DNA from: Candidatus Saccharimonadales bacterium
GTDB lineage: Bacteria; Patescibacteriota; Saccharimonadia; Saccharimonadales; 2-12-FULL-41-12
Direction of reading: 5' to 3'
Assembly: GCA_025451045.1 (NCBI GenBank)
Contig: JANWLD010000001.1
Coordinates: 133,812 to 197,811, forward strand
DNA length: 64,000 nucleotides
Numbering within the stretch: position 1 is the first letter of the stretch; each line of letters starts with the position of its first letter. The notes beneath the pieces were generated by a model. It did no database searches and had not been told where the DNA came from. It saw nothing but the letters and a program-made list of their open reading frames with translations. Positions 9,469 through 64,000 of this stretch are shown in pieces. The position numbers were made by a program, and so were the translations under genes.

Positions 9469-9477
9469 TGTTATAGT
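9469..9477 (+). promoter_or_regulatory. extended -10 (TGtTATAGT) 7 nt upstream of ATG 9485
   Basis: TG at 9469-70, TATAGT at 9472-77, then 7 nt to the ATG with no SD in between. Confidence 0.45.
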
Positions 9478-9484
9478 CTCAAAA

Positions 9485-10930
9485 ATGAGTATATCCGGCA
9501 AAACAAAAAAGCTAGTTAAACGTTATAAATTTATGTTGATTGGAATTTTAGCGGTTATTTTCCTATATGTAGGAGTTGCAGGAACGGTATCGGCGACGGC
9601 TCAATGGTGGGTTGGCACTGGTGATACCGTTCACCATGTAGACTACATCTGGCGCTTACATAACGGAGATATCCCTAAACGCACCGATGGTATACAGTAC
9701 CCGCCATTTGTTAAGCTAGGTGGGCAGAAACCACAGATAGAGTCCGCTAATCCGCCATTGTTTTATGCCCTGCAAGCACCGCTTATTGGACCATTGCTAA
9801 ACCAAGACCATTGGGAAAAGGCTATCGCTGTGGGCAGGGCAATCAATATATTCATCGGCGTGATATGTATAATCGTATTAGCTTGGGCTGGCTGGTTATT
9901 TGGCGGTAGACGCAGGGAAATGTTTGCGGTCGCAGTACCGGCTTTATCGGTAATGACGTATAGGTTCACAAGGTTGAATCTGGATTATTCCGTTGATGCG
10001 CTACTTCTGGTGTTTTCGACTTTGTCGATTATCTTTATCTATAAACTTCTGCAAAACGGGCTTCAGAAAAAATATCTGGCAGTTCTTACGCTTCTATCCG
10101 TGGCAGGCATGGCAACCAAAGGGCCTTATATAATGTTCCTAGGCGTTACTTTGCTGGCAATCATCCTGGCATCGGTAGTCCATGGCAAGAAAAGCACAGT
10201 TAAGAATATTTTGAGCGGTTCAGCCATATCGGCGGCTATTTTAGTGATCACCCTTATTTGTATAGGTTGGTTCTACTACTTTTGGAATTACAAGGTTTAC
10301 GGCAACTGGTTTACGGCCCGCCCGCCCGAATATAGGGGTAACCGGGAAGTAAAATCATTTCATGAAGTAATCACCAGCACCAGCCTTTGGTTCATATTCT
10401 ATACTGGATATGCGAAGGCTATCGCGGTATCCGCCGCAATTACCAGTTTTGCTACTGCCGGAATATTGATTGTGAAGAAAAGTGGTATCAAAAAACTGTT
10501 AAGCGACAAGCCTCTGCATCTGACCGCTTTGCTGATGGCCTTAGCTACAATCGGTATATTCGCCACCCAGATTCAGCACGCTGTAGGTATAGGGGCATAT
10601 AATTTCAGGTATATGCTGCCGGCAATGTTGCCGATAGCACTGCTAATGACATACGGATTGTTGGAATTTAAGCGCGCTAGGGGACAGCTGGTAGCCCTAG
10701 CCGCCGCAGCCGCCGGCTACACATCGATATTGGCGGTCGCTTCTTCTTCAACTTTGGCTGACAGGGTATCGGGGTTTGAATCTGCCGACGGCAATGTAAA
10801 CAAATTGCTCACCGCGACATCTAGCAATGGGCTGTCTGACTCGATACTTTATATTTTGTTAGGACTATGTGCCATCGGAGCAATACTTTTGTCAGTGTCG
10901 CTGTTTAGGCTTTCAAGATCGGACAGATAA
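9485..10930 (+). CDS. polytopic membrane protein, ArnT/PMT-like GT-C candidate
   Basis: More than 10 hydrophobic spans across 481 aa. The ORF is open from GTG 9458, but ATG 9485 sits just downstream of the -10. No soluble domain. Confidence 0.45.
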   Translation: MSISGKTKKLVKRYKFMLIGILAVIFLYVGVAGTVSATAQWWVGTGDTVHHVDYIWRLHNGDIPKRTDGIQYPPFVKLGGQKPQIESANPPLFYALQAPLIGPLLNQDHWEKAIAVGRAINIFIGVICIIVLAWAGWLFGGRRREMFAVAVPALSVMTYRFTRLNLDYSVDALLLVFSTLSIIFIYKLLQNGLQKKYLAVLTLLSVAGMATKGPYIMFLGVTLLAIILASVVHGKKSTVKNILSGSAISAAILVITLICIGWFYYFWNYKVYGNWFTARPPEYRGNREVKSFHEVITSTSLWFIFYTGYAKAIAVSAAITSFATAGILIVKKSGIKKLLSDKPLHLTALLMALATIGIFATQIQHAVGIGAYNFRYMLPAMLPIALLMTYGLLEFKRARGQLVALAAAAAGYTSILAVASSSTLADRVSGFESADGNVNKLLTATSSNGLSDSILYILLGLCAIGAILLSVSLFRLSRSDR

Positions 10931-10931
10931 C

Positions 10932-12623
10932 TTATTGGCTTAATATTACATTCTTTAGCAAGTTGGTGATGCTCGGGCTGTCATAGACTTCCCACCACTT
11001 AGCCATACTTTTGCTAGTGGTGCTTTCGATATCTCCCGGGTTGCTGGAAGTACGAACTACGTAATATCTCCCGTCTCGCTGGAAGCCTTTGCCGAATTGT
11101 TTAGACGTACCAATAATAGCCGGGACATCTGCGCTTAAGTCGGGACCATCAAATAAACTGCCAACATATTGCCAGCGGTCATTAAAGCGCACCGGGTTTA
11201 TTCTTCGAACAGTTCCATGGTCAAACAAGTACCAATCACTGCCTACATGGAATGATGCTCTTATAGTTCCTCCAAGCCCATCGTTAGTATCGGGAGTATT
11301 TTTAATTTGAGAAAGGTATTCACCGGAAATAGTGATTACTGGTACTGCATCGTAACCGGTAATCAGTTTCAGATACGTCGTATTAGTATCGGGACTACCA
11401 GTGCCTGAAATAGGATAAATTTTCCCGCCGTCTAAAAGATAAACCTTTCCGCTATTGGCTGAACGCGCTAATCTGGCGAGCTTACTGTTGATTTGTAATT
11501 CGCTAAGCGTTCTGCCCTCAAATTGTGGCGTCTCGCTATTGTATTCACTTTCAAATCCCCAGGCTCTGGCGATTGATGAACTTTGGATATTAATGAAAGT
11601 CTGGCGATTTAGCAGGTACTTCTTACCAGTATTTCTAGACCCTGCAATATTATTAAGGGGCAGAGTATAGGCAGGGTAGCCACAGCCCTTATCGCTATCG
11701 CCGCTGACAAAGAAATCAGTTAACCCCCATTCTCTAATGGCATAATCACTAAGCTGGCGTTTTTTCGCTATATAACTTTCGATCATATATTTTTGCCCGC
11801 TACATTCAATCAGCCTGAAAGCGGATTGCCCAATAGGATTGCCGAACCAATCATTGAACAGCCTCCAGAAATTGCGGTTGCCATATGAACTGCAACTGTC
11901 GCCTAGACCATAGAGATGGCTAAGTGCCGCTTTGTTCGGGGTATAAGGAGTATAGTTATAAAGCCCGGCGGTAGCCTGGTTTTCTATGAAGACACTTTTC
12001 TTGCCACAACTGGTCCGCGGGTGATATTGGATTTGGTTGGTCAGGCCGGCCTTGTAAGAGTATGTATCCTTATCTCGAGCGTATTTTTTAAACTGCCAAG
12101 CGGCTTTGTAGACTTGGTTGAAAAAGCCATAATATTCACTATTACAGGGAGCGGTATCAGGACAACCGTAACCAGTCGCGCTTCGGTATTGCGTAGTTGA
12201 AGGACTAGTGTCAGTTATCAGGCTTTGCTCTTTCTGGAGTAAAACTATTAAAACTTTTTGGCTGACACCACAAGCTTTGCCAACACTATAGATTATCTTG
12301 GCCGCAGATTGAGAAGTAGTTTTCTCTCCTAGCTTGTTGCAAAGCTCAGATTGAGCCGCTCTTTCTGGAGTACCGCTGCGTGAGTAATCCTTAAGACAGG
12401 TGTAGCCATCGTCACAATCAGGTACTTTAGAGTCCAAGAATGACTGTATCCTTGTTGCGCTCAAAGCGTCGCCGTCAAAAAAAGTTGAATTATCAATAAT
12501 ACGTCCAGCCTTGAAGCTACTGCCGGAAAGAGCCTCTGTTTTGGCGCGTGCACCAAAATTAAATATTGATACAAACAGAGCGATGATTATTAAGAGGTTA
12601 AAAAAAAATTTAGACTTAATCAT
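10932..12623 (-). CDS. secreted Cys-rich protein, possible cell-wall-active enzyme
   Basis: Signal-peptide-like N-terminus (FFFNLLIIIALFVSIFNFGARA). It has a conserved-looking block VLIVLLQKEQSLITD...GYGCPD...YGNRNFWRLFNDWFG that I recall from secreted proteins of Gram-positive bacteria. The function is not established. Confidence 0.4.
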   Translation of the reverse strand: MIKSKFFFNLLIIIALFVSIFNFGARAKTEALSGSSFKAGRIIDNSTFFDGDALSATRIQSFLDSKVPDCDDGYTCLKDYSRSGTPERAAQSELCNKLGEKTTSQSAAKIIYSVGKACGVSQKVLIVLLQKEQSLITDTSPSTTQYRSATGYGCPDTAPCNSEYYGFFNQVYKAAWQFKKYARDKDTYSYKAGLTNQIQYHPRTSCGKKSVFIENQATAGLYNYTPYTPNKAALSHLYGLGDSCSSYGNRNFWRLFNDWFGNPIGQSAFRLIECSGQKYMIESYIAKKRQLSDYAIREWGLTDFFVSGDSDKGCGYPAYTLPLNNIAGSRNTGKKYLLNRQTFINIQSSSIARAWGFESEYNSETPQFEGRTLSELQINSKLARLARSANSGKVYLLDGGKIYPISGTGSPDTNTTYLKLITGYDAVPVITISGEYLSQIKNTPDTNDGLGGTIRASFHVGSDWYLFDHGTVRRINPVRFNDRWQYVGSLFDGPDLSADVPAIIGTSKQFGKGFQRDGRYYVVRTSSNPGDIESTTSKSMAKWWEVYDSPSITNLLKNVILSQ

Positions 12624-13227: not shown

Positions 13228-13255
13228 TTGATACCCTAATAGGAGGCTTTATAAT
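13228..13255 (+). promoter_or_regulatory. sigma70-like promoter TTGATA-16-TATAAT, 11 nt upstream of ATG 13267
   Basis: TTGATA at 13228-33 and TATAAT at 13250-55. Confidence 0.5.
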
Positions 13256-13266
13256 AAGAATAAGTA

Positions 13267-14352
13267 ATGAAGAAACTGAAAAAACTTGTAGTTTTCTTGT
13301 TATCCATCAAATTTATCCGGAAAACTTATAATGCCTTCTCACTATTTTTGGCACGGATAGGCGGCCTGAACCGGGTTACAAGTGTTTTTTACCATTGGAT
13401 TGGTTTTTTAAGCTTTTCGCGCGAACAATACGCTGTTTTAACTGGGCGCAAAAGCTACTACCGTAACCTGGACAGACGCCGCAAAAGCCGCTCCGAACTG
13501 CGCAGAAATACCCACCGGCTGGAAAAAGGCCTGTTGATGCGCCCGCGGCGTAAAGTGTTCGCCAAAGACTATATAGAAGAAACCATAGAATTTTATGAAA
13601 AGGCTATCACCCAGTACAAAAAAAACAAAGAGGGGGTGGACCAAACCGAACTTGCCTGGGCCCAAAATGTGCTTAATGAATATTTTGCCGTCGTTTCCAA
13701 TGATGACGACAAAATAAACAAGCTCCGCGAAAGATTCCATGCGGTTGATTTTGAACCCGGCGAGGTAGATAAGAAACCGTACAAACGTGGCAATCCGAAA
13801 AGCTCAATTAAATACGAAGACTTATTGGAACTGTCACACCAGCGGCGTTCGGTCAGATGGTTTAAGCAAAAACCGGTGCCAAGAGACCTTATCGACAAAG
13901 CACTTTTAGTAGCTGAACAATCCCCTTCGGCTTGTAACCGCTTGCCGTATGAATTCCGTATCTTTGATCAACCAGAGCTTGTAAAAAAAGTTTCCTCCAT
14001 ACCGTTCGGTTCAGCCGGGTACAGGGACAATATTCCTACCATAATAGTAGTAGTCGGCAAACTAGAGAATTATTTCAGTCCGCGCGATAGGCACTTAGTA
14101 TATGTCGATTCAGCCTTAGCTGTGATGCCTTTTATGTATGCGCTGGAAACTTTAGGGCTGGCATCCAGTTCCATAAACTGGCCTGATTTTGAACCGCTGG
14201 AAGCTAAAATGCAAAAGACTTTAGGATTGTCGCCCGATGAGCGCCCGATAATGTTAATCGCAGTAGGCTATGCCGATCCGGAAGGCATGGTGGCTTATTC
14301 GCAGAAGAAATCGCTGGAAGTTCTTCGGACTTATAACAAGATCGGCCAATGA
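13267..14352 (+). CDS. nitroreductase-family protein with ~170-aa N-terminal extension
   Basis: C-terminal half RRSVRWFKQKPVPRDLIDKALLVAEQSPSACNRLPYEF matches the nitroreductase fold signature. The N-terminal part is not recognised. Confidence 0.7.
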   Translation: MKKLKKLVVFLLSIKFIRKTYNAFSLFLARIGGLNRVTSVFYHWIGFLSFSREQYAVLTGRKSYYRNLDRRRKSRSELRRNTHRLEKGLLMRPRRKVFAKDYIEETIEFYEKAITQYKKNKEGVDQTELAWAQNVLNEYFAVVSNDDDKINKLRERFHAVDFEPGEVDKKPYKRGNPKSSIKYEDLLELSHQRRSVRWFKQKPVPRDLIDKALLVAEQSPSACNRLPYEFRIFDQPELVKKVSSIPFGSAGYRDNIPTIIVVVGKLENYFSPRDRHLVYVDSALAVMPFMYALETLGLASSSINWPDFEPLEAKMQKTLGLSPDERPIMLIAVGYADPEGMVAYSQKKSLEVLRTYNKIGQ

Positions 14353-22022: not shown

Positions 22023-23566
<1,544 letters not shown>

Positions 23567-23573
23567 TCATCTT

Positions 23574-23579
23574 ATTATA
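23574..23579 (-). promoter_or_regulatory. -10 TATAAT (minus strand) 7 nt upstream of rfbB ATG 23566
   Basis: The plus strand reads attata at 23574-79. The 7-nt spacer aagatga has no SD. Confidence 0.45.
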
Positions 23580-23625
23580 ACTTCTAGGGAGGTACTTTAA
23601 AAACAAGTTATGCCGACTTAATGTT

Positions 23626-23634
23626 TGCTATACT
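23626..23634 (+). promoter_or_regulatory. extended -10 TGcTATACT 6 nt upstream of ATG 23641
   Basis: TG at 23626-27, TATACT at 23629-34, spacer ttttgc. Confidence 0.45.
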
Positions 23635-23640
23635 TTTTGC

Positions 23641-30538: not shown

Positions 30539-30547
30539 TAAGACTTT

Positions 30548-44292: not shown

Positions 44293-44901
44293 ATGACCGA
44301 CAAACGCAAATTAAACCATAGTTACCGCCGTCTTAGACATATCAAATCAAGATATATTCTTATTCTGGCCGTCTTTTTTCTAATATTGGGTATTTATGGG
44401 ATGCGTCAAAATTACTCGCGAATGGTAGAGTTACGCGCGGCAGTGGCTAGTGCCGATAAGCAAAACGGCGATGTCGAAACAGCGCTCAGGAACCTGAGGG
44501 AATTCGTTTACAACCACATGAACACCAACCTTTCCAGCGGCAACGTGGCGATAAAGCCGCCGATACAGCTCAAATACCGCTATGAACGCTTGGCAAAAAC
44601 CGAGGCGAAAAAGGCTGAGGAAGTGAATAGAGAAGTCAAGAAACAAGGTGAACAAATCTGCATAAAAAAATACCCGGGCCGAATTTTCAACAGCCCAAGA
44701 GTCAACTGCACGGCCAAATATATAAGCGAACATTCAGCTAAACAAAATCCAATACCAAGCGACCTTTATAAATTCGATTTTATCAGCCCGGTCTGGTCGC
44801 CTGACCTTGCCGGTGTATCGCTACTTTTATCACTGGTATTTTTCGCGGCGCTGCTATTTAGAACCGGATTGGAATTCTGGTACCGATCCGAATTGGGTTA
44901 A
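44293..44901 (+). CDS. hypothetical protein with N- and C-terminal TM helices
   Basis: 202-aa ORF. TATAAT at 44280-85 lies 7 nt upstream of the ATG. Confidence 0.45.
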   Translation: MTDKRKLNHSYRRLRHIKSRYILILAVFFLILGIYGMRQNYSRMVELRAAVASADKQNGDVETALRNLREFVYNHMNTNLSSGNVAIKPPIQLKYRYERLAKTEAKKAEEVNREVKKQGEQICIKKYPGRIFNSPRVNCTAKYISEHSAKQNPIPSDLYKFDFISPVWSPDLAGVSLLLSLVFFAALLFRTGLEFWYRSELG

Positions 44902-45691: not shown

Positions 45692-45721
45692 TTGACAAGG
45701 AAAAACTCCTCGGAGTATGGT
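45692..45721 (+). promoter_or_regulatory. promoter TTGACA-18-TATGGT
   Basis: TTGACA at 45692-97 and TATGGT at 45716-21. An SD GGGAG (45746-50) lies 9 nt before ATG 45760. Confidence 0.5.
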
Positions 45722-45759
45722 AGGGGTACCATTAAATCTAACAGAGGGAGATGTAAGAA

Positions 45760-45957
45760 ATGGCATATAAGCACACTAATAGTAAGGGTGTAACATACTA
45801 TCTAAATTCAAAGGATGTAACTTTGCGCGGTGGTAAGCAGCAGACTATTTACTACTTCAGCAAGGACGAGCGCAAAGACACAGCTACCGACTTGCCAAGT
45901 GGTATGAGCGTTAACGAAAACCCACGCAACGGTTTCCTTACCGTAAAACGCGGCTAA
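45760..45957 (+). CDS. small basic conserved-looking protein (65 aa) with internal repeat
   Basis: GVTYYLNSKDV and QTIYYFSKDE are repeated blocks. The gene has its own promoter, SD and terminator. Confidence 0.6.
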   Translation: MAYKHTNSKGVTYYLNSKDVTLRGGKQQTIYYFSKDERKDTATDLPSGMSVNENPRNGFLTVKRG

Positions 45958-45974
45958 TTTAATCAAGCTAAAAG

Positions 45975-46005: not shown

Positions 46006-46046
46006 GATTTTGGAAAGTACAAGCTCGGTTTGTTAAACTAGTCCTT

Positions 46047-46805
46047 GTGCCCAAAGCAATTGTAGAAGTCAAAGAACTTACCAAAAAGTATGGCAACCGC
46101 AAGGTCGTCAACAAAATCAGTTTTTCAGTTAAGCAGGGCGAAGTATTTGGTATCTTGGGACCGAATGGCGCCGGTAAGACAACTACACTGGAAATGATAG
46201 AATCAATCCGCGAAATTGACAGCGGTAACGTACATGTTGATGGCATAGATGTGCAGAAAGATTCTCAGGCCGTCAAAAACATCATCGGCGTCCAGCAACA
46301 GACCCCGGCCTTTATGGACAAAGTCAAATTAAGAGAACATATCGAGCAAATCGCTTCGATTTACGGTGAAAAGGCTGATGCCCATGCCCTTTTGGAAGAA
46401 GTCGGCCTTGCCGAAGAAACTAATTCGTATTTTGAAAACCTGTCCGGCGGCCAGAAACAACGCTTTAGCATCGCGGCTTCATTGGTTCACGGACCAAAAG
46501 TATTTTTCATGGACGAGCCGACTACCGGCTTGGATCCTCAAGCCCGGCGCAATCTCTGGGACCTTGTGCGTACTACTCAGGCCAAGGGAGTAACCATTAT
46601 TCTGACTACCCACTATATGGAAGAGGCCGAACAGCTGTGTGACAGGGTAGCGATAATGGACCGGGGTAAAATCATCGCGCTTGATACGCCGAAAAACCTC
46701 GTACAGAAATTGCTCAAGAGCGGTTTTAAAAAGAAGCAGCATGTTGAGCAAGCCAATCTGGAAGATGTTTTTATTGACTTGACCGGAAAGGAGCTCAGGG
46801 ACTAA
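46047..46805 (+). CDS. ABC transporter ATP-binding protein (ABC-2/DrrA-like)
   Basis: GTG start, GPNGAGKTT, LSGGQKQRFSIA and FFMDEPTTGLD. Confidence 0.85.
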   Translation: MPKAIVEVKELTKKYGNRKVVNKISFSVKQGEVFGILGPNGAGKTTTLEMIESIREIDSGNVHVDGIDVQKDSQAVKNIIGVQQQTPAFMDKVKLREHIEQIASIYGEKADAHALLEEVGLAEETNSYFENLSGGQKQRFSIAASLVHGPKVFFMDEPTTGLDPQARRNLWDLVRTTQAKGVTIILTTHYMEEAEQLCDRVAIMDRGKIIALDTPKNLVQKLLKSGFKKKQHVEQANLEDVFIDLTGKELRD

Positions 46806-47958: not shown

Positions 47959-47967
47959 TGATATAAT
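47959..47967 (+). promoter_or_regulatory. extended -10 TGaTATAAT 7 nt upstream of ATG 47975
   Basis: TG at 47959-60 and TATAAT at 47962-67. Confidence 0.45.
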
Positions 47968-47974
47968 TATAGTT

Positions 47975-48376
47975 ATGAATAAGTCGGAAGAGTCGGTATT
48001 TACTAAGATTATTAAGGGAGAGATCCCTAGCCACAAAATCTATGAAGATGACAGGTGCCTGGCATTTTTAGATATTTACCCGCAGGCAGAAGGCCATACA
48101 TTGCTTATTCCTAAACAGCAGATAGACAAACTTTGGGATCTGCCTGATGATCTGTATCACCATCTTTGGAATATGGCGAAAAAAATAGAAACCAAGATGA
48201 CAGAAGTATTAAACCCACCTAGAGTCGGAATCTTTGTAGAGGGTTTTGGCGTTCCGCATGCGCATATTCACTTAATACCGGTATATAAATTAAACGATTT
48301 AAAAAATCCACAAGATATGCAAGCAAAACCTGACCATACAGCTTTGGCTGAAATAGCCGAAAGGTTGAAATTCTAG
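47975..48376 (+). CDS. HIT-family nucleotide hydrolase/transferase
   Basis: The histidine triad HAHIHLIP is present. Confidence 0.85.
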   Translation: MNKSEESVFTKIIKGEIPSHKIYEDDRCLAFLDIYPQAEGHTLLIPKQQIDKLWDLPDDLYHHLWNMAKKIETKMTEVLNPPRVGIFVEGFGVPHAHIHLIPVYKLNDLKNPQDMQAKPDHTALAEIAERLKF

Positions 48377-48473
48377 CCAGGCGTTTTCCAGAGAGGGTTC
48401 CCGTGAACGAATATCGTGGAAGTTCGCGGGATACTCTGGAAAATAAAAGCCTAACTAGAATAAGATAATTAAA

Positions 48474-49508
48474 ATGATAAATGTAGACAAGTCGCCTAAA
48501 CCATTTTTTGTTTTGGCGCCGATGTATGATGTTACGGATACGGTCTTCCGCCAAATTATTTCCGATATTGCTCCGCCGGATTTGAGCATGAGCGAATTTG
48601 TCAACGTCGACGGCTTGGCTAGCGTTGGCCGGGACAAGCTACTGCCAAAAATAGTGTTCAACTCCTCTGAAACCCCAATAATCTATCAGTTCTGGGGCAA
48701 AAAACCAGAGAATTATAAAAAAATTATCGAACAAGTTTTTGACTATTCACTAATAAACTCCGCAAATGTCTTAGCCGGCCAGAAGAAGCTTGGCAAGGCC
48801 GGAAGGGAAAAAATCATAGGTATTGATATCAACATGGGCTGTCCGGACAAAGCGGTAGTTAAAAACGGCTGTTGTAGCGCTTTAATCAAAGACCATGCGC
48901 TAGCGGACGATATCATCGAAGCTGCCAGACAAGGCATTGCCGGTCGTGGTACATTAAGCGTGAAGACCCGCATTGGCTTTTCTGAGTTTAATCAAGATTG
49001 GATACGGTTTTTGTTATCAAAGAAACTTAACATGTTAAGTATTCATTTACGGACAGTCAAAGAGATGTCTAAAGTACCGGCTCATTTTGAACTTTTACCT
49101 GAGATTATAAAACTGCGTGATGAAATATCGCCTGAAACTTTGCTGGTGGCAAATGGAGATATTAAAAGCAGACAGCAAGCCATTGAATTACATAAACGCT
49201 ACAAGATAGACGGGGCGATGATTGGCACCGGGGTTTTTAGCAATCCATTCGCCTTTTCTGAAAATAATTCGTGGGATAGCTTTACTCCTTTAAATAAGAT
49301 AGAGCTGTATGAAAAACACGTGCGTTTGTTCAAATCAACTTGGAAAAAGAATGAGCGGCCTATTGTTACGCTGAATAAATTCTGTAAAATCTATATAAAC
49401 GGCTTCGATGGCGCGAAAGAACTGCGTGAGATTCTCATGCAAGCGAAAAGTGCCGATGATCTGGAAGGTAAACTTAACATGTTAAGCAAGGAATATACAA
49501 CAAGATGA
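48474..49508 (+). CDS. dus: tRNA-dihydrouridine synthase
   Basis: FVLAPMYDVTDTVFRQ, INMGCP and SVKTRIG motifs. Confidence 0.8.
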   Translation: MINVDKSPKPFFVLAPMYDVTDTVFRQIISDIAPPDLSMSEFVNVDGLASVGRDKLLPKIVFNSSETPIIYQFWGKKPENYKKIIEQVFDYSLINSANVLAGQKKLGKAGREKIIGIDINMGCPDKAVVKNGCCSALIKDHALADDIIEAARQGIAGRGTLSVKTRIGFSEFNQDWIRFLLSKKLNMLSIHLRTVKEMSKVPAHFELLPEIIKLRDEISPETLLVANGDIKSRQQAIELHKRYKIDGAMIGTGVFSNPFAFSENNSWDSFTPLNKIELYEKHVRLFKSTWKKNERPIVTLNKFCKIYINGFDGAKELREILMQAKSADDLEGKLNMLSKEYTTR

Positions 49509-50137: not shown

Positions 50138-50213
50138 TGGTGGGGGTGGATGGAATCGAACCATCTACCAATCGGTTATGAGCCGACTGCTCTAACCGGT
50201 GAGCTACACCCCC
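50138..50213 (-). tRNA. tRNA with CAU anticodon (elongator Met or Ile2), CCA encoded
   Basis: The reverse complement GGGGGTGTAGCTCACCGGTTAGAGCAGTCGGCTCATAACCGATTGGTAGATGGTTCGATTCCATCCACCCCCACCA folds as a cloverleaf. The acceptor stem pairs GGGGGTG with CACCCCC, the anticodon loop is CTCATAA, and the T-loop is TTCGATT. Confidence 0.9.
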
Positions 50214-50245: not shown

Positions 50246-50254
50246 TGCTATAAT
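50246..50254 (+). promoter_or_regulatory. extended -10 TGcTATAAT 11 nt upstream of ATG 50266
   Basis: TG at 50246-47 and TATAAT at 50249-54. Confidence 0.45.
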
Positions 50255-50265
50255 ATTAAGTAGCG

Positions 50266-50718
50266 ATGCTACCGAAAATAAACAATGCGGATTTACAGAA
50301 GAAAATCAAACGGTTTTCTGATATACGAGTTATCGGACTGGTTGCCTTTGCTATAGTGGTCCTGCTGGTTTCGTGGAGTATCTTAAATGTCCTTCAGCTC
50401 AACTACCAGCTGGAAAGGCAAAAGGCCGACTTAGTACAAAAAAATCGTCTTGCTAAACTGGAAAACCAAAACCTTAATTTGCAGAATGTATATTTCCAGT
50501 CAGATGAATATCTGGAGCTAAGCGCCCGCAGCCAGCTGAACAAAGCCGCTCCCGGTGAAAAGCTGTATCAGATACCAAAAAGCGTTGCAATGGATCACAC
50601 TGTTGATTTAGCGAAGACCGAAAAGCAGATAAAAGGGGAGCAAGAACAGGATAAATCAAAATTAGTACGTAACTTAGAAAGTTGGCGTGATTTTTTCTTG
50701 CATGCTCAAAGTGATTAG
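50266..50718 (+). CDS. septum formation initiator-like (FtsB/DivIC family) membrane coiled-coil protein
   Basis: One TM (VIGLVAFAIVVLLVSW), then a coiled coil and the ...DEYLELSARSQLNKAAPGEKLY motif. Confidence 0.65.
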   Translation: MLPKINNADLQKKIKRFSDIRVIGLVAFAIVVLLVSWSILNVLQLNYQLERQKADLVQKNRLAKLENQNLNLQNVYFQSDEYLELSARSQLNKAAPGEKLYQIPKSVAMDHTVDLAKTEKQIKGEQEQDKSKLVRNLESWRDFFLHAQSD

Positions 50719-50890: not shown

Positions 50891-51126
50891 AATTTTTCCT
50901 TTACACAATCAAAACTCGGATTGCATGACCATTTTCGGAATGCGAATCTATATCTTCCGACGGGTTTTTCATTAATTGCTTCCTTTGTTTTTTGTGAGGT
51001 TAATTTACAAATTAACCATAACAATAATTTTGACCTAAAATCCAATAAATCGCCGATTTAATTAAAAAGATTGTTGTAAAAGCTACTGCTTAACTCATTC
51101 ATGATATAAAAGAGTACAATAAGTTT

Positions 51127-51942
51127 ATGATTTCTGATTTACCATCACGCCAAGCTGACGGGCACAAAGGAACATTCGGAACCGTCGCAATTTTTGGCGG
51201 TGATATTTCTGCTGATGAAGTTATGCTGGGCGGCCCGGCTTTCGCGGCTGAAGCCGCCCTGCGTACCGGAGCCGGCTTGGTTGCCTTTGTTGGCAAGAGG
51301 GAAGTGTTGGTAGAGTTAATAAAATTAGTGCCGCAGGCTGTCGGAATAATCTCATCCGGCAATTTTGAAGATTCATCTAAAAAGTGGACATCTGTCGTTA
51401 TAGGCCCAGGCTTAGGCGTTAATAATCAAAATATTAAACTTATTAATTCACTTTTAAGCTTAAAACTGCCAACAGTTATAGATGCTGACGGACTAAATAC
51501 ACTAGCCGAAAACCCTAATATTTCTAATAGTATCCATAAGGGGTGCGTACTAACGCCGCATGCCAAAGAATTTGAGCGTCTAGCCAAAGCTTTTGTAGTA
51601 AAAGATGCTGATGAATTAGCAAAAAAACTTGGTTGCGTCGTAGTTCTAAAAGACAGCATTACTTATGTGTCTGACAGTACAAAAAAGTGGTCTAACAAAT
51701 TAAAAAACCCAGCCCTGGCTACCGGCGGTACCGGCGACATACTGGCAGGTTTAATTGGCGGTCTGTTGGCGCAATACGCACCTAAAACACTATCGGTTTT
51801 TGACTGCGCGCGCTTAGCCGTAGAGATTCATGCTGAAGCCGGAAAAGAGTGGAAGAATCAGCACGGTTCAGGAGGCCTTATAATAGAAGAACTTTTAGCT
51901 CTGATACCCAAAGTTATGGAAAAAATGAGACGATCTCAGTAG
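51127..51942 (+). CDS. nnrD: ADP-dependent NAD(P)H-hydrate dehydratase (YjeF C-terminal type)
   Basis: GHKGTFGTVAIFGG and GGTGDILAGLIGGLLAQ motifs. TACAAT lies 6 nt upstream of the ATG. Confidence 0.8.
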   Translation: MISDLPSRQADGHKGTFGTVAIFGGDISADEVMLGGPAFAAEAALRTGAGLVAFVGKREVLVELIKLVPQAVGIISSGNFEDSSKKWTSVVIGPGLGVNNQNIKLINSLLSLKLPTVIDADGLNTLAENPNISNSIHKGCVLTPHAKEFERLAKAFVVKDADELAKKLGCVVVLKDSITYVSDSTKKWSNKLKNPALATGGTGDILAGLIGGLLAQYAPKTLSVFDCARLAVEIHAEAGKEWKNQHGSGGLIIEELLALIPKVMEKMRRSQ

Positions 51943-53661: not shown

Positions 53662-54105
53662 TTACTCTCCGTGATATTTATGGGCAATGGCGTGGCCTTT
53701 GCCGCGGGCTATCAAAAAACGATTGAAGGGGAAAGCTACAATGAATGCCACGACCAAAGACAAACCGAGGCTTAGCCAAAACAGTACCGTGTCCAATCCG
53801 GCAGCTAAAGCTCCCGGAACCAGCGCGATAAAACCATTGTCAGTGATTTCCATCACAAGGATAGATATAGTATCGGCGGCTAAGGCTATCTTCAACGCTT
53901 TTTTCAACCCCAAACCATGGCTGATAAGAGGTTTCATACTAAGCGAGTATCCAAAAACAAAAGCCAGCAATATTGAAATAGTTATACTGCCCGTGGCTGA
54001 CCAGCCAAGAGCGGCAGATACCACCATGCCGATAATTTCGCCAATAGCACAACCGGTCAGGCAGTGAAGGGTAGCACTGGCGGCAGTCCGATCTAGGTTA
54101 TCCAT
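53662..54105 (-). CDS. DUF4396-like membrane protein
   Basis: LHCLTGCAIGEIIGMVV N-terminal motif and 4 TM helices. Confidence 0.6.
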   Translation of the reverse strand: MDNLDRTAASATLHCLTGCAIGEIIGMVVSAALGWSATGSITISILLAFVFGYSLSMKPLISHGLGLKKALKIALAADTISILVMEITDNGFIALVPGALAAGLDTVLFWLSLGLSLVVAFIVAFPFNRFLIARGKGHAIAHKYHGE

Positions 54106-54156
54106 AAAGCTATATTAAACCCTCATAACGGTAATTAATAACAAGAAGAAGTCGGG

Positions 54157-54882
54157 CTATGCGAAACGGGTAACTATAAACATAAAAATTACACCTAAAA
54201 TCGTCAAACCGGTCGCCTTATAGCTGGAATGTTTGCTATGTGCCTCCGGCAAAAGGTTGCTAGCACTGATATATAGTATAAAACCGGCGAAAAAACCTAG
54301 ATATATCGCAAGGGCGGTTTCTGATAATACAAAAGCTAAACTAAGTAAACCGCCGGCGATTGGCATAAGGACAACAACTGCCAGCCACTTTTTGATGTGT
54401 GTCAGCTTATTTTGGTTAAATAGCATAAAAGTTGTCGTATCGAAGCCATCGGCAAAACGGTGCCCGATAACAGCAATTGCTACCGCTGTTCCGACGGCCG
54501 CAGATACTTGAAAAGCTACACCGATACTGAGTCCGTCTAAAAAACTATGCCCACTAAGAGCCACCGCCCGGGCTACTCCTAATTTAGGGTGGCGATGCGG
54601 GCTGTATTGTTGTTCGCTTGCTTCGTGCAATGGGATAAACTTCTCAAACAGATGAAAAAGCAAAAACCCGGAAGCCATAGCCACCATCGGCCATACCGGG
54701 TCTAAGCCTTGCGATTGGGCAATTTCAAAGATTTCCGGCAGAAGGTCAAATATTACTAACCCCAAAACCAGTCCGGAAGTTAACGCCAACATTAAATTCA
54801 GCCATCGTTGGCTACGAATTGCCGTATATCCGCCAAGTAAAGCTGCTACCGATGCCGCTATCGTTAGAAGAAAAACAACCAT
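54157..54882 (-). CDS. ZIP-family divalent metal (zinc) transporter
   Basis: 8 TM helices with HSFLDGLSIG and GHRFADGF motifs. Confidence 0.8.
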   Translation of the reverse strand: MVVFLLTIAASVAALLGGYTAIRSQRWLNLMLALTSGLVLGLVIFDLLPEIFEIAQSQGLDPVWPMVAMASGFLLFHLFEKFIPLHEASEQQYSPHRHPKLGVARAVALSGHSFLDGLSIGVAFQVSAAVGTAVAIAVIGHRFADGFDTTTFMLFNQNKLTHIKKWLAVVVLMPIAGGLLSLAFVLSETALAIYLGFFAGFILYISASNLLPEAHSKHSSYKATGLTILGVIFMFIVTRFA

Positions 54883-54912
54883 AAATTGATTCTACATCGG
54901 CCCGCTGCATAT

Positions 54913-54947
54913 TTGCAAATTTGTTGCAATAATGATAAATTTTGCAA
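54913..54947. promoter_or_regulatory. three self-palindromic TTGCAA hexamers plus AATAATGATAAAT Fur-box-like core (candidate Zur operator)
   Basis: TTGCAA occurs at 54913-18, 54924-29 and 54942-47, all within the 66-bp divergent ZIP/Fur intergenic region. Confidence 0.45.
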
Positions 54948-54948
54948 T

Positions 54949-55362
54949 ATGGACAGCGAAACCAAGCTGAAAAAACTGCTCAAAGATAAAGGCTACAGTA
55001 TTACCAAGCCAAGACTGATTGTTTTTAGTTTTCTGCAGAACATGGACGGGCCGGTTTCTGTGGCCGAACTGGCCAAATCGTTACAAGATATCGACAAAGT
55101 CAGTATTTATCGCACCATAGATTTGTTTGAATCCGCAGGGATAATCCATCGGGTTTGGACAGGCTTTAAAAGCAGAGTAGAACTTAGCGAAGAATTTTCA
55201 GAACACCATCACCACTTTACCTGTGTGAATTGCGGCAAGATAATTTCATTTGACAGCGCGGCATTGGAAAAAAGTCTAACGAGCCTTGAAAAAAGCAAGG
55301 GACTTGAACTTACCCATCACTCGGTAGAGCTAACCGGCTACTGCCAGGCCTGCAGAGGCTAA
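54949..55362 (+). CDS. Fur-family metalloregulator (probably Zur)
   Basis: ITKPRLIVFSFL wHTH, the HHHHFTCVNCGKI...CQAC zinc sites and adjacency to the ZIP gene. ATG 54949 is preferred over the ORF-track start. Confidence 0.75.
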   Translation: MDSETKLKKLLKDKGYSITKPRLIVFSFLQNMDGPVSVAELAKSLQDIDKVSIYRTIDLFESAGIIHRVWTGFKSRVELSEEFSEHHHHFTCVNCGKIISFDSAALEKSLTSLEKSKGLELTHHSVELTGYCQACRG

Positions 55363-56546
55363 TTGTCTTCTTTTTGTTTATAAAATTGAGCCGTCGGGGA
55401 ATCTTCACCCCTCATGGTAATAATTGTGCTGTTTCCGTTCTTTAGATTTTTGCTTATGTGAAAAAACTTGGCGGCCTGGTTCTTATAAGGTCGGTAATCC
55501 AGCCAGGGCGTATGTGTCATGCCAGCACTCGATACGTTTGCGGCTAGGTTATCAATATCTGGCTGGCCTCCTACATAAGCGGCACCAACCATCCGGCCCA
55601 AAGCGTTGCAGACTTCTTCTTGGCTTGCTAAATCCAAATTATCCTCAGCCGCGGCATTAAACGTAGCTATGTAATCCTGCATGGATTTTTCTTCAGGCCT
55701 GTGTCCTGGCACCGTTTCTGCGTTATCAACTTCGACTATGGATTGGCATATCTCGGTCGCGATAATCCAGGGGATAAAAGGGTTGTTACCTGATCCGCTG
55801 TCCTTTATAAAACTTAAAGTAAGGTTAGGGTCGCGCCACGAAGTAACGCCATCGCTTCTGGGCAGCTCCTTCCTCAAATATTCTGGGATTGACTTTGTCA
55901 TTATCATGACGTGCGGAACACGGCGCGGCTGTACATTAGCCGTGGTATGGCCGCCGATTGTAAATTCTTCGTCCCCTTGTCCGGCCAGCCAGGACTTTGT
56001 AGCCTTAATTGCATAATTAACAAAAAGTAAATCTACAGGATTTTCCGTAGCGTTGAACATAGCAAACGGATACTTATAAAGATATTGTTTGAACTCCGGC
56101 TTGAAAAGTTTCTGATCCTGCATGTATATTACTTCGCTAAGGCGGGGAGTTGGGGAAGGTTTATCGCTGTCAGGGTCAGAAAAGTAATCACGAAAAACCT
56201 TGCGGGACGAGGCAGCTGGTTTTAGTACTCCGGTCGTATGTCCCTGCGACATGTATTCCGAGTACATGCTTTCTTTGACGTCTTCTACGGTTGGGCTTGT
56301 GTCGTCGATTTCTCCTATTGGAGCGTAATTCTCTTTGCCAATCTGCGCGCCGCCTGATAGAGGAGTAGTATTATCTTCGAAGGCGTCTTTTACTCCTCGC
56401 AAGCCTACCACGGCTAATGCGGCAACGCTCAAGCCTAGTGCCGCTGTTGCGCTAACCCGTTTAATAAGAGAATATTGAGCCTGTCTTTGCTCCGCCTGCT
56501 CTTGCTCTGAAGGGGGGCTAGGCGACTCAAACCTAGCTTGTTCCAT
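55359..56546 (-). CDS. hypothetical membrane-anchored extracytoplasmic protein
   Basis: One TM (VSATAALGLSVAALAVVGL). ATG 56546 lies 7 nt downstream of the extended -10 TGtTAAAGT (56554-62, minus strand). The ORF track start is TTG 56582. Confidence 0.45.
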   Translation of the reverse strand: MEQARFESPSPPSEQEQAEQRQAQYSLIKRVSATAALGLSVAALAVVGLRGVKDAFEDNTTPLSGGAQIGKENYAPIGEIDDTSPTVEDVKESMYSEYMSQGHTTGVLKPAASSRKVFRDYFSDPDSDKPSPTPRLSEVIYMQDQKLFKPEFKQYLYKYPFAMFNATENPVDLLFVNYAIKATKSWLAGQGDEEFTIGGHTTANVQPRRVPHVMIMTKSIPEYLRKELPRSDGVTSWRDPNLTLSFIKDSGSGNNPFIPWIIATEICQSIVEVDNAETVPGHRPEEKSMQDYIATFNAAAEDNLDLASQEEVCNALGRMVGAAYVGGQPDIDNLAANVSSAGMTHTPWLDYRPYKNQAAKFFHISKNLKNGNSTIITMRGEDSPTAQFYKQKEDN

Positions 56547-56607
56547 GTGGATAACTTTAACATTTACAGTAGTTTTTGTCAAACTAGGGACAATAAAGGG
56601 TGTGCGT

Positions 56608-56658: not shown

Positions 56659-56733
56659 CGCGGGGTGGAGCAGCGGCAGCTCGTGTGGCTCATAACCACA
56701 AGGTCGCAGGTTCGAGTCCTGCCCCCGCTACCA
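56659..56733 (+). tRNA. initiator tRNA-fMet (CAU), CCA encoded
   Basis: CGCGGGGTGGAGCAGC...GGCTCATAACC...GGTTCGAGTCCTGCCCCCGCTACCA. The C1 x U72 mismatch and close resemblance to E. coli tRNA-fMet support the call. Confidence 0.9.
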
Positions 56734-57593: not shown

Positions 57594-57677
57594 GTTCCAC
57601 TCCTACGCACCCTTCTCTCTTTATAGATACTATAATAGGGGGTATACTGTAAGATGAATGACCAAGGAGGAGCATAC

Positions 57678-58097
57678 ATGCGAGGGCCGATAGATTACAT
57701 TATTGTAGGATTTGAAGGAAATAAGTTTGATGGCAGCATCCTGCGTGCCCTTGAGGAAGCCATTGACAAGGGCATTATCAGCTTAATTGCCCTCTCAGTT
57801 ATACAAAAAGATAGCAAAGGCACAATAAGCACACTGGATATTGCCAACGTAGGTGATGAGTACGTCGTAGAGTTTAATGAAAAGTACAAGCCGGATAATA
57901 AAAATATCTCCAGCGAAGACATGGATGAAGTAGCGGAGTTGATTGAAAACAATACCAGTGCGGGACTATTAATTATTGAGCAAACATGGGCCAAGCCGCT
58001 TAAAAAAGCATTGATTGATGCGAACGGTGTCTTAGTAGCTGAAGGACGAATCCATCCAGACGCTGCTGCTGAGTTAAACGAAGAAAAGGGGAAGTAG
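57678..58097 (+). CDS. DUF6325/DUF1269-like protein
   Basis: aaggagg SD 8 nt upstream of ATG 57678. It begins PIDYIIVGFEGNKFDGSILRAL, and a SHOCT gene follows, which is the usual pairing as I recall it. Confidence 0.5.
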   Translation: MRGPIDYIIVGFEGNKFDGSILRALEEAIDKGIISLIALSVIQKDSKGTISTLDIANVGDEYVVEFNEKYKPDNKNISSEDMDEVAELIENNTSAGLLIIEQTWAKPLKKALIDANGVLVAEGRIHPDAAAELNEEKGK

Positions 58098-58364: not shown

Positions 58365-59951
58365 CTACTTCTGGACTTTGTTTGGAATATTGCGGGAAAA
58401 CAGCAACGTAATAATTGATATAAAGACCAGTGCGTATAATGCGACCCGCAAAGATTGAAGCTGGGATTCGTTATATAGGCTACTTATCTCTGCAGAGTCA
58501 CTTGGGCTCAAGCCTGCTTTATTGGCGTAATCTTCGACCTCGCTGATGGGAACTACCGAAACTCCAGCCTCAGTTTTTTCACTGACATAAGATTTAGTGC
58601 TAGCGGATAAGTCACTACTTTGTACGTCGGCGGCGAATGAAGTCGTAAGGGATGCTATGAGTACCGATCCTATCAAGGCAGTGCCGAGTGATGAGCCAAG
58701 ATTTTGGAAAACTCCTTGCAAACCGCCGACTTCGCTGCTTCTTTTAGCAGGGACGCTGGACATATTGATATTACCGATCTGTGATGCCAAAAGTCCCAAC
58801 GCCGCTCCGACAAATAGCATTGACATGCCAAATAAAAAGCCTTTCAAAGTTGACGACACGGAAGCAAGCAAGCCAAATGAACTAGCAATTAATATATACT
58901 GGCCTAGCCTGATTATTTTCTTAGGCGACCATTTGGCAGACAAGCGGGTTCCAAGAACAGAAAACAGTATGATACCTACCGACAGCGGGAAAATCTTGAT
59001 ACCGGTCTTAAGCGCGTCATACCCAAGTGTCATCTGCAGATAGACAGGGATAATAAAGAATATGCCGGCTATCATCGCATATTGGGCAAGTAAAACCGAC
59101 AACCCGCTGCGCAACTGAGCAATCGACAGCATCGATACATCCAGCAGCACGTCTTTTTTCTGCTCGGCAAGTTTTTGTTGCCGGCTATAAAATAGGCGCA
59201 ATATGACAATCCCGGATAAAATCAGGTAAGCGCACATTGATATGCCAAGCGGAGCAAGCTCGTGCCCAAAAACTTCAGGCGAATTCAGCGGCTGGACCCA
59301 ACCCCATATTTTGCTTTGCAGCATTCCGAAAACAAGCAGAACCAAACCACTGGCGGACATTAGAACACTCAGGACATCTATTTTGATCTTTATCGGCTTT
59401 GCGGTATCAAGTATGTGGTTTTTAAATAGCAATACGCCTGCCATAGTCACGACTTCGGCGAAGAAAACATAGCGCCAAGACAGGTAAGTGGTGACAAAAC
59501 CGCCTATCAGCGGCCCGGCGGCCATTGCCGCCCCGGACACAGCGCCAATAATTGCAAACCCGGTAACTCGATCTTTGCCCTTGTAATTATTAGCAATAAG
59601 CGCCGCAATGGCTGGAATAACCAATACGGCACCGATACCTTCTATGACCGACCAGCCCAAGAACAACATAGTGATATTTGCGCTAAGGCCGGTTATCAAT
59701 GAACCTGTGGCATAAATAATGCTGCCAATAACAAATGCTTTCTTCCTTCCCCAGATATCGCCAAGCTTAGCCCCGAGCAACATAAGCGCAGCCATTGTTA
59801 GCGTATAAAATGTGATGCAAGCCTGCATCGCAGAGACTGTCGTATCAAGGTCTTTGACAACCGTAGAAATAGAAACATTCATCACGGTACTATCAAGCAC
59901 CATTACGAACTGCGCGCAAGCCAATACAATTGCTACAGTCCACTTCTTCAT
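58365..59951 (-). CDS. MFS transporter, 14-TM DHA2 (EmrB/QacA-like)
   Basis: LDSTVMNVS and GKLGDIWGRKK motifs with about 14 TM helices. ATG 59951 lies 9 nt downstream of TATAAT (59961-66, minus strand). Confidence 0.8.
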   Translation of the reverse strand: MKKWTVAIVLACAQFVMVLDSTVMNVSISTVVKDLDTTVSAMQACITFYTLTMAALMLLGAKLGDIWGRKKAFVIGSIIYATGSLITGLSANITMLFLGWSVIEGIGAVLVIPAIAALIANNYKGKDRVTGFAIIGAVSGAAMAAGPLIGGFVTTYLSWRYVFFAEVVTMAGVLLFKNHILDTAKPIKIKIDVLSVLMSASGLVLLVFGMLQSKIWGWVQPLNSPEVFGHELAPLGISMCAYLILSGIVILRLFYSRQQKLAEQKKDVLLDVSMLSIAQLRSGLSVLLAQYAMIAGIFFIIPVYLQMTLGYDALKTGIKIFPLSVGIILFSVLGTRLSAKWSPKKIIRLGQYILIASSFGLLASVSSTLKGFLFGMSMLFVGAALGLLASQIGNINMSSVPAKRSSEVGGLQGVFQNLGSSLGTALIGSVLIASLTTSFAADVQSSDLSASTKSYVSEKTEAGVSVVPISEVEDYANKAGLSPSDSAEISSLYNESQLQSLRVALYALVFISIITLLFSRNIPNKVQK

Positions 59952-60011
59952 AATGGTCGCATTATAACATCTATATAAATATGACCAGCCAAACCCCAAT
60001 TTTTAGATTGG

Positions 60012-63314: not shown

Positions 63315-63471
63315 ATATCTTTCTACTTATGCTAGCAGGAGCTTATGTTTAACCCATGTGGACGGCTTCGGAAGAAGCGGGTTCGCCTTTAACATGCTTG
63401 ATAGCAAAGAAAGCTATAACTGACGCGGCAAAGATGCATTTATTCATAGACCCTTTTCCGATAACATATTG

Positions 63472-63500
63472 TTGACATTTTTATTAATAAATTTTAATAT
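63472..63500 (+). promoter_or_regulatory. promoter TTGACA-17-TAATAT, 10 nt upstream of ATG 63511
   Basis: TTGACA at 63472-77 and TAATAT at 63495-500. Confidence 0.55.
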
Positions 63501-63510
63501 ACTTACTACT

Positions 63511-64000
63511 ATGGGTGTTGAAGATTCTTCCCCTGGACCTGAGGCACCACCATTGCTAGAAGTAGCTTTAGGTGAGTCGAAAATTCATATACAAAACCTT
63601 CCAGAAATGATTGAAGCCTCCCGTGCCAATCGTATTCGTGTTCATCACCAGGCTTACGCTGACGGACCCGTCAGATCAACATCCATCGATGTATTTACCA
63701 GTGAGGATCAAATTCAATGGCAAGGCTCAATAGGATTTCAAAGACCTCTGATGCATCACGCTTACCAAGACAGATTAACGCGCAGCCTGTGGGGTGAGGA
63801 TAGCGAAGATACTGAAGATCTTCGGACAGAAATCTGGATTCCTGATCATCCAATGGGGAAACTAGATTCCGGTGCCTATAGTTTTTATGTGGGATTTGCT
63901 TCTGAAGCTGGCCACCGAGGTTTCGAGTATCTAGGTATTGGAGGTCCGTTTGGGTATAGGCAGGAAATTGACCCGGAAGAAGCTGTTAAGCAAGAGGAGC
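63511..64000 (+). CDS. hypothetical protein, 3'-truncated by window edge (not in ORF track)
   Basis: My translation MGVEDSSPGPEAPPLLEVALGESKIHIQNLPEMIEASRANRIRVHHQAYADGP... stays open for 163 codons to the window end. Confidence 0.55.
   Translation, partial: MGVEDSSPGPEAPPLLEVALGESKIHIQNLPEMIEASRANRIRVHHQAYADGPVRSTSIDVFTSEDQIQWQGSIGFQRPLMHHAYQDRLTRSLWGEDSEDTEDLRTEIWIPDHPMGKLDSGAYSFYVGFASEAGHRGFEYLGIGGPFGYRQEIDPEEAVKQEE

Follow-up and report, generated by a model that had tools for sequence, protein, structure and literature searches.

We analyzed a 64,000-nucleotide stretch of chromosomal DNA (contig JANWLD010000001.1; hereafter the window) from Candidatus Saccharimonadia (Saccharibacteria/TM7, Patescibacteria; ultra-small, 44% GC), in which many genes carry a −10-like hexamer, TANNNT, a few nucleotides upstream of the start codon. 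About 40% of the transcription units very probably have a sigma-70-type promoter that abuts the coding sequence (CDS), with mRNAs that would be leaderless or nearly leaderless, and with initiation by Shine-Dalgarno (SD) pairing or ATGA overlap elsewhere. This layout is the known bacterial leaderless pattern (group C of GeneMarkS-2) in a lineage for which we found no published description, and it is not a new mechanism.

Enrichment of a start-adjacent −10 hexamer

Genes were called mechanically as stop-to-stop open reading frames (ORFs) of at least 120 codons by greedy selection, and the first ATG, GTG, or TTG was taken as the start (longest ORF); thus, the motif had no influence on which start was chosen. 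Genes without tight coupling to a preceding gene on the same strand were regarded as non-internal, or first, genes (41 in the window, where 17 genes were internal), and the spacer was defined as the nucleotides between the end of the −10 hexamer and the start codon. Chance expectation was obtained from 500 rounds of dinucleotide-preserving shuffles of each gene's own 60-nt upstream region. The comparison set consisted of 43 related loci of metagenome-assembled genomes (MAGs; 680 kb, 433 first genes), which were retrieved as loci of orthologues of the class II aminoacyl-tRNA synthetase (aaRS) gene at 37892 and in which gene calling was crude. These aaRS orthologues are 65–86% identical, and nearly all come from MAGs labelled Candidatus Saccharibacteria, Saccharimonadales, or Saccharimonadia. 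Window and loci together provided 474 first genes. As a negative control, 200 kb of Escherichia coli K-12 was passed through the identical pipeline.

TANNNT at a spacer of 6–11 nt was present in 24 of the 41 first genes of the window, compared with 8.0 ± 2.4 in the shuffles (z = 6.8). None of the 500 rounds reached 24, so that the shuffled control proposed in the initial annotation of this DNA did not match the observed frequency. Spacers of 6–8 nt alone accounted for 17 genes, where 4.2 were expected, and the tightly coupled internal genes remained at the chance level (2 of 17 vs. 1.9 expected). The related loci similarly showed the hexamer in 169 of 433 first genes vs. 74.8 ± 8.2 expected, a count in which orthologues are included repeatedly. 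The excess was absent from the E. coli control (11 of 118 genes vs. 13.7 expected), indicating that the signal is not produced by the longest-ORF rule. Expressed as a share of units, the excess in the window is (24−8)/41 = 39%.

TANNNT was the top-enriched of 64 XYNNNZ patterns at the start-adjacent position, and the pattern was present in loci spanning 35% to 57% GC. The hexamer offset profile had its maximum at −12 to −15 and dropped abruptly at spacer 5, without a peak around −26 to −30, the position of the archaeal TATA box. Such a sharp boundary is expected if the transcription start site (TSS) cannot fall within the ORF; the minimum spacer equals the usual distance between a −10 element and the TSS.

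Promoter hallmarks of the motif

An unbiased expectation-maximization motif search of positions −26 to −1 of the 474 first genes returned G-n-T-A-T-A-A-T, which was found in 42% of genes (lambda 0.42) with the hexamer at spacers 6–9. After alignment of the upstream regions on the hexamer, T and G were enriched at both TGn positions, and a blurred TTG(a/c)a appeared 17 nt upstream. TGn preceded 29.7% of the start-adjacent hexamers but only 6.9% of all TANNNT in the window and the relatives' genomes, and a −35 match of at least 4/6 was likewise found at 29.7% of the start-adjacent hexamers vs. 12.3% in the background. These features support the view that the start-adjacent motif would be a sigma-70-type promoter element, often of the extended −10 form, and not a ribosome-binding element.

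The initial annotation had listed 17 hexamer/start pairs in the window, and their hexamers, start codons, and spacers were all exactly as listed. TGn occurs at seven of these sites; the extended −10 is thus a feature of a subset, not of all. Among the TGn examples named there, those at 9469, 23626, 37874, 47959, 50246, and 56562(−) were reproduced, whereas the coordinate 50240(−) was off by 2. This minus-strand TGc spans 50242–50240, before TATACT and 20 nt upstream of a tRNA-Met, and belongs to a tRNA promoter, not a protein-gene promoter. TGn is additionally present at 46031 and 59969(−), which had not been named. A perfect TTGACA at 17 nt was observed at two listed sites, 56546 and 63511. 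A scan with consensus promoters and terminators was too noisy to be decisive, with 54 promoter-like sites where 35.7 were expected and 27 terminator-like sites where 20.5 were; it recovered 36936, 37892, 54882, and 45760.

The start-adjacent sites of the window are given below as −35 element (where noted), hexamer with any TGn, spacer, and start codon.

9469–9487, + strand: TGtTATAGT-7-ATG, start of a 481-aa membrane protein, ATG 9485
9412–9429, − strand: TGtTAGAAT-6-GTG, divergent partner of 9485, 478-aa product in the public collection; not in the initial list
13250–13269, + strand: TATAAT-11-ATG, nitroreductase-family gene, −35 TTGATA at 16 nt, expected leader ~4–5 nt
23564–23579, − strand: TATAAT-7-ATG, dTDP-glucose/GDP-mannose dehydratase-like; the ATG is the ORF's first start codon
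23626–23643, + strand: TGcTATACT-6-ATG, cytidylyltransferase-like, divergent to 23566(−) with a 74-nt gap
30534–30550, + strand: TATAAT-8-ATG, ATG 30548; not in the initial list
36924–36938, + strand: TAAAAT-6-ATG, CBS-domain protein, −35 TTGTCG at 17 nt
37853–37894, + strand: TTGGAA-18-TGcTATAGT-9-ATG, class II aaRS (Asp/Asn type), preceding gene only 47 nt away
41914–41931, + strand: TATAAT-9-ATG, Sua5/YrdC
44216–44232, − strand: TATACT-8-ATG, 427-aa protein with N-terminus MHVYF, ATG 44218; not in the initial list
44280–44295, + strand: TATAAT-7-ATG, ATG 44293, divergent to 44218(−) with a 74-nt gap
46031–46049, + strand: TGtTAAACT-7-GTG, ABC ATPase, directly after a hairpin and T-run that is terminator-like by eye; 252-aa product in the public collection
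47959–47977, + strand: TGaTATAAT-7-ATG, HIT family
48461–48476, + strand: TAAGAT-7-ATG, dihydrouridine synthase
50246–50268, + strand: TGcTATAAT-11-ATG, 150-aa protein, ATG 50266; initially given only as a TGn
51115–51129, + strand: TACAAT-6-ATG, NAD(P)H-hydrate dehydratase
54103–54117, − strand: TAATAT-6-ATG, DUF4396
54880–54918, − strand: TTGCAA-18-TAGAAT-6-ATG, ZIP transporter, ATG 54882
56544–56585, − strand: TTGACA-17-TGtTAAAGT-7-ATG, 395-aa protein, ATG 56546
59949–59969, − strand: TGtTATAAT-9-ATG, MFS transporter of 528 aa, ATG 59951
63466–63513, + strand: TTGACA-17-TAATAT-10-ATG, gene continuing past the window end, ATG 63511, the least certain start
35515 and 62643: weaker start-adjacent sites, missing from the initial list

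Use of SD sequences and stop/start overlaps

SD 4-mers were scored within −18 to −4. In the window, not one of the 24 genes with a start-adjacent hexamer had such a 4-mer, compared with 7 of the 17 remaining first genes and 9 of 15 internal ones, and with 13–22% in shuffles; in the related loci, 13 of 169 start-adjacent genes had one. These counts agree with the original remark that the spacers are devoid of an SD. Among internal junctions, the ATGA-type 4-nt overlap occurred most often (7 of 17 in the window, 32 of 135 in window and loci), and together with the SD counts it agrees with the description of internal genes as having SDs or 4-nt overlaps. The individual SDs cited for the window are real at 17524, 29369, 31655, 45760, and 57678, whereas that at 4413 is weak (AAGGGG). 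Two leadered genes illustrate the contrast.

45692–45762, + strand: TTGACA-18-TATGGT, ~30-nt leader, GAGGGAG SD, ATG 45760
57640–57680, + strand: TATAAT, ~30-nt leader with AAGGAGG, ATG 57678 (the first ATG is 57654)

The SD 4-mers at other first and internal genes, together with these clear leadered examples, indicate that SD pairing is functional in the organism. Two predicted initiation routes, a start-adjacent SD-less one and one by SD or ATGA overlap, coexist in one genome. The anti-SD of the 16S rRNA appears, indirectly from this SD usage, to be intact; the 16S 3′ end was not found in the window and 44 loci. An Rfam scan of the window returned two tRNAs only, and no riboswitch or leader RNA.

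The ORF at 45760–45972 (+) encodes a basic, Lys/Tyr-rich product of ~70 aa and has the strongest canonical promoter of the region, a good SD, and an end that resembles an intrinsic terminator by eye. Its product is probably a small protein made in large amounts.

Proposed mode of initiation

From the observed motif, its position, its TGn and −35 hallmarks, the absence of SDs, and the conservation described below, we infer the TSS and the translation mechanism as follows; the same observations support the earlier suggestion of mostly leaderless mRNAs or mRNAs with 0–5-nt leaders. The promoter would consist of a −10 hexamer TAnnnT (consensus TATAAT), often with TGn and a weak −35, that ends 6–9 (occasionally 10–11) nt before the start codon. 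RNA polymerase usually initiates ~7 nt downstream of the −10 hexamer. Transcription would start at the A of the ATG for spacers of 6–8 nt, or 1–5 nt upstream of it for spacers of 9–11 nt, and the resulting mRNAs would be leaderless or nearly so, without room for an SD. The 5′-terminal AUG would presumably be recognized by the ribosome with initiator tRNA, by analogy with characterized leaderless mRNAs; such recognition is established in E. coli, mycobacteria, and Deinococcus. SD pairing (AAGGAGG-like) or ATGA stop/start overlap would serve the operon-internal genes and the smaller share of first genes that have a leader.

Start-codon assignment

For at least four genes of the window, taking the longest ORF gives the wrong start. 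Thirteen of the 17 listed starts are the first start codon of their ORF, and the other four were chosen over longer ORFs. Public start calls were checked by exact-sequence look-up in the public protein collection (source NCBI). For gene 9485, the collection holds the 481-aa version but not the 490-aa GTG version (9458), and for gene 56546 it holds the 395-aa version but not the 407-aa TTG version (56582). Similarly, the SD-preceded start of gene 57678 is present, and its longest-ORF version, 57654, is absent. For gene 59951, a 100%-identical public protein has 528 aa, and most close homologues also have 528 aa, not 544. The starts initially picked for these four genes are thus the public ones, as would be anticipated from the claim that the layout helps to choose starts over longest-ORF calls. 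Public calls also use the start-adjacent codon at 9414(−), 30548, 44218(−), 50266, and the pair 2321(−)/2348(+).

Conservation in relatives

In the gene at 44218, TAnnnT at a spacer of 6–8 nt precedes a conserved ATG-CAT (N-terminus MHIYF) in 16 of 17 orthologues. The letters of the hexamer drift (TATACT, TAGACT, TACCCT, TAAACT, TACAAT, TAAAAT) at a constant position, and in 17 of 17 orthologues the conservation of the N-terminus begins at the proposed Met (k=0). A start-adjacent hexamer was also observed in 14 of 16 orthologues of the ABC ATPase (46047; mostly ATG starts), 9 of 11 of the gene at 44293, and 8 of 15 of Sua5 (41929).

Most aaRS orthologues have TGnTAGAAT or TACAAT 7–11 nt before the ATG. 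In three loci (L009, L023, and L032), TGgTAGAAT lies ~20–45 nt upstream, and an SD-like AAGGAG (L009, L023) or AGGA (L032) precedes the start; in four others (L011, L012, L036, and L040), an SD is present and no hexamer is nearby. An SD where the promoter is more distal is expected if the hexamer is a promoter and only leadered mRNAs require an SD. The aaRS orthologues thus appear to have switched repeatedly between leaderless and SD-led forms behind the same promoter.

In eight loci (L002–L005, L007, L029, L033, and L034), the upstream gene ends 6–9 nt before the aaRS ATG, and the whole TGgTAGAAT promoter lies inside its CDS. A promoter embedded in the preceding CDS means that a short intergenic distance is no sign of co-transcription in this clade. 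Genes of the related loci with an upstream gap of <25 nt showed a hexamer excess (31 of 118 vs. 12.4 expected); 15 of the 33 "internal" hexamer hits (45%) carry TGn, and about ten are the aaRS promoter within the 3′ end of the preceding gene. Upstream stop codons were considered as a source of this internal excess and rejected, as only 3 of 33 hexamers begin at a stop codon.

L002 and L007 are labelled as Verrucomicrobiia and Dormiibacterota MAGs, respectively. Their aaRS is 79–83% identical to that of the window, with the same TGgTAGAAT promoter, and they are probably mis-binned Saccharimonadia contigs.

Weighing of alternative explanations

The best-surviving alternative, which we regard as improbable, is that the start-adjacent promoters are real but secondary to read-through from upstream, with SD-less starts served by re-initiation or 70S scanning. 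Genes 37892, 47975, 48474, and 54105 indeed lie only 45–97 nt after a same-strand gene, the promoter is within the upstream gene in relatives, and clear terminators are few (27 vs. 20.5 expected). However, 11 of the 22 genes of the window whose hexamer has a spacer of 6–9 nt face a divergent neighbour, where read-through from an upstream same-strand gene is impossible. Moreover, the 6-nt minimum spacing is unexplained unless initiation at the ATG matters.

Still less probable is that the hexamer is an AT-rich, non-SD ribosome-binding site (RBS) or an enhancer carried by leadered mRNAs, of the kind seen in GeneMarkS-2 group B (e.g., Bacteroidota). The hexamer sits where an RBS would, and the excess extends to the closely spaced loci genes. 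Nevertheless, the motif is TATAAT with TGn and a −35 signal at 16–18 nt, the coupled genes of the window have no excess, and the "internal" hits in the loci have the TGn content and aaRS contribution described above. In addition, a canonical SD appears in orthologues whose promoter is further upstream, and at 46047 the terminator-like element directly upstream leaves no room for a second promoter. Unlike group B, the motif is here limited to genes able to have their own promoter, and internal genes use SDs.

Mis-assigned starts are slightly less credible again. True starts would then lie downstream behind an SD, and the hexamers would be ordinary promoters with normal leaders. The window does contain such a case: the first ATG after TATAAT is 57654, but the real start is 57678 behind AAGGAGG. 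At 16 of the 17 listed sites, however, none of the in-frame starts in the next 40 codons is preceded by an SD-like 4-mer, the exception being 63511 (TTG with GAGG). Conserved N-termini, as for 44218, and homologue lengths also agree with the proposed starts.

The scope for chance, that is, TANNNT near starts in a genome whose intergenic DNA is AT-rich (44% GC overall) plus reader-fitted starts, is practically nil, since a single TANNNT in the six-position window is expected in only ~20% of upstream regions (8.0/41) and, although 4 of the 17 starts were taken over longer ORFs, the excess was obtained with mechanical starts and exceeded every shuffle, E. coli lacked it, and the positional peak, the unbiased motif, and the position conserved in orthologues stand against it.

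Several observations nevertheless count against start-adjacent promoters with leaderless mRNAs. Spacers of 9–11 nt, at 6 of the 17 sites, imply leaders of 2–5 nt and are not strictly leaderless. The ATG share differs only marginally between start-adjacent starts and SD genes (91% vs. 83%, p = 0.048), and the 5′ folding energy (minimum free energy of the first 25 or 35 nt) is the same for candidate leaderless ORFs and SD genes (p = 0.5–0.8). The gene finder behind the public start calls may model the same signal, so that their agreement is perhaps not independent. In the loci statistics, orthologous genes are counted repeatedly and are phylogenetically non-independent, and the z-scores are thereby inflated by shared ancestry. 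Finally, no nucleotide-resolution TSS, ribosome-profiling, or N-terminal proteomic data were found in the literature for any Saccharibacterium. A 2025 study inferred 188 TSSs of TM7x from RNA-seq coverage, and the −10-to-TSS distance was unusually variable in that data set.

Compact divergent gene pairs

Divergent start-to-start distances in the clade had a median of 91 nt, with 44% at ≤80 nt and 10% at ≤30 nt, compared with a median of 228 nt and none at ≤30 nt in E. coli. These very short divergent intergenic regions would be explained in part by the absence of 5′ untranslated regions (UTRs). Ten divergent pairs are 14–27 nt apart, and eight of them have TANNNT at spacer 6–11 on both strands, overlapping or abutting. 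Opposite-strand −10 hexamers overlap in compact pairs, for example, in the palindromic TAGTATACT, and each promoter's −35 region would fall in the partner gene's CDS. In L029 and L033, the arrangement is 'CAT-acttcTAGTATACTcttaggaag-ATG', and both N-termini are anchored by homology to the window genes 44218 and 44293.

Window 2319–2350, both strands: compact divergent pair, ATG 2321(−) and ATG 2348(+), 26 nt apart, TAAAAT-10 (−) and TAACTT-6 (+); public calls agree on both starts; the 2321(−) site is not in the initial list
L003 12860–12875: compact divergent pair in a relative
L019 17659–17679: compact divergent pair in a relative
L029 16537–16561: compact divergent pair in a relative
L033 12265–12289: compact divergent pair in a relative
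L029 13063–13091: compact divergent pair in a relative
L034 12803–12831: compact divergent pair in a relative
Window 23567–23640, 36862–36935, and 44219–44292: 74-nt divergent gaps, found also in L010, L012, L019, and L030

We tentatively propose, with slightly more doubt than confidence, that leaderless initiation at ~40% of units may be selectively maintained across the clade, and that its extreme would be divergent coding genes that share one bidirectional promoter core, with starts 14–27 nt apart. If this is true, a shared core would force mutually exclusive transcription of the divergent pair, and few bacterial gene-start arrangements known to us would be as compact. Warman et al. reportedly described, in Nature Microbiology in 2021, bidirectional bacterial promoters with overlapping −10 elements. 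The likeness to promoters of this type lies in the opposite-strand −10-like hexamers that overlap or abut between divergent genes, in relatives and at 2321/2348 in the window; the difference is that here both products would be leaderless coding mRNAs, with starts 14–27 nt apart.

Seven of 133 divergent gaps are exactly 74 nt, and 20 are within 74–80 nt. A length of 74 nt corresponds to about two abutting leaderless promoters of ~37 nt, and orthology perhaps accounts for part of this number, as the L012 pair is orthologous to 44218/44293. By look, the gap histogram appears clustered at ~25, 46, 57, 67, and 76 nt. A 158-aa ORF with a TTG start, 54886–55362 (+), begins 3 nt from the divergent ATG 54882 and occupies the 476 nt up to the next gene on the minus strand; this candidate gene may instead start at 54949.

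Other features of the window

Two tRNA genes with the anticodon CAT were found at 56659–56733 (+) and 50138–50213 (−). The former begins CGCGGGGTGGAG, which we take to resemble the E. coli initiator tRNA. Its −10 box, TAGTAT/TATAAA after TTGACT, lies 12–15 nt upstream of the mature 5′ end, and that of the tRNA at 50213(−), TGcTATACT, lies ~20 nt upstream. With −10 boxes 12–20 nt from the mature 5′ ends, stable-RNA genes retain a short leader.

The MFS transporter at 58365–59951 (−) shows 64–67% identity to Micrococcales proteins (Arthrobacter, Microbacterium, Cryobacterium, and Agromyces), which is unusually high across phyla. This similarity suggests that the gene was transferred horizontally between Saccharibacteria and Actinobacteria, a group with known hosts of Saccharibacteria.

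Relation to known systems

In the extended −10 promoters (TGnTATAAT) of E. coli and Firmicutes, the TG lies one base upstream of the hexamer and offsets a poor −35, and leaders of 20–50 nt bearing an SD normally follow. The TG has the same placement here, but the promoter abuts the start codon.

In GeneMarkS-2 group C (Lomsadze et al. 2018, PMC6028130), a Pribnow box lies ~6–8 nt from the starts of first genes, an RBS is used elsewhere, and 25–50% of operons are predicted to be leaderless; its members are mostly Actinobacteria and Deinococcus-Thermus. The window resembles this group in its Pribnow-like motif at first genes, its SDs at others, and its share of ~40% of units. It differs in its lineage, as Saccharimonadia, of the Candidate Phyla Radiation (CPR), are not named among the group C clades in the main text of PMC6028130, and in its AT-richer genome, a motif near full TATAAT, and frequent TGn. 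In archaeal group D, a TATA box/B recognition element lies ~26 nt upstream (PMC6028130). Operon-first genes without 5′ UTR and SD and internal genes with SD are common to both, but here the signal, at −12 to −7, is the −10 hexamer of bacteria, without a peak at −26 to −30, and the organism is bacterial.

In Mycobacterium tuberculosis (Cortes et al. 2013, PMC3898074), the TANNNT −10 is the dominant promoter determinant, with little or no −35 consensus. Genes whose TSS is within 5 bp of the start codon, defined there as leaderless, make up 22–26% of genes and include half of the aaRS genes, and TGn precedes 7% of TANNNT promoters. By comparison, TGn is present at ~30% (clade) to 41% (7 of 17 sites) here, and a weak −35 signal is detectable. 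The M. tuberculosis layout was demonstrated by TSS mapping, whereas that of Saccharimonadia is derived from sequence. In the literature that we searched, nothing beyond reference lists links leaderless mRNAs to Saccharibacteria or CPR, and a preprint on the TM7x transcriptome contains no promoter or UTR analysis.

Implications

For annotation, CPR genomes are mostly MAGs, and the gene finders of many pipelines ignore leaderless starts; a TGnTATAAT-N6-9-ATG rule would correct N-termini and expose promoters. Saccharibacteria have become genetically tractable only recently, with expression cassettes that use the tuf and rpsJ promoters, and a compact native leaderless promoter design would be directly usable in their genetics. 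Leaderless initiation is often discussed as ancestral. The Saccharibacteria lineage has reduced ribosomes and few biogenesis factors, and a leaderless share of ~40% in such a lineage would provide a data point for evolution beside Actinobacteria and Deinococcus-Thermus.

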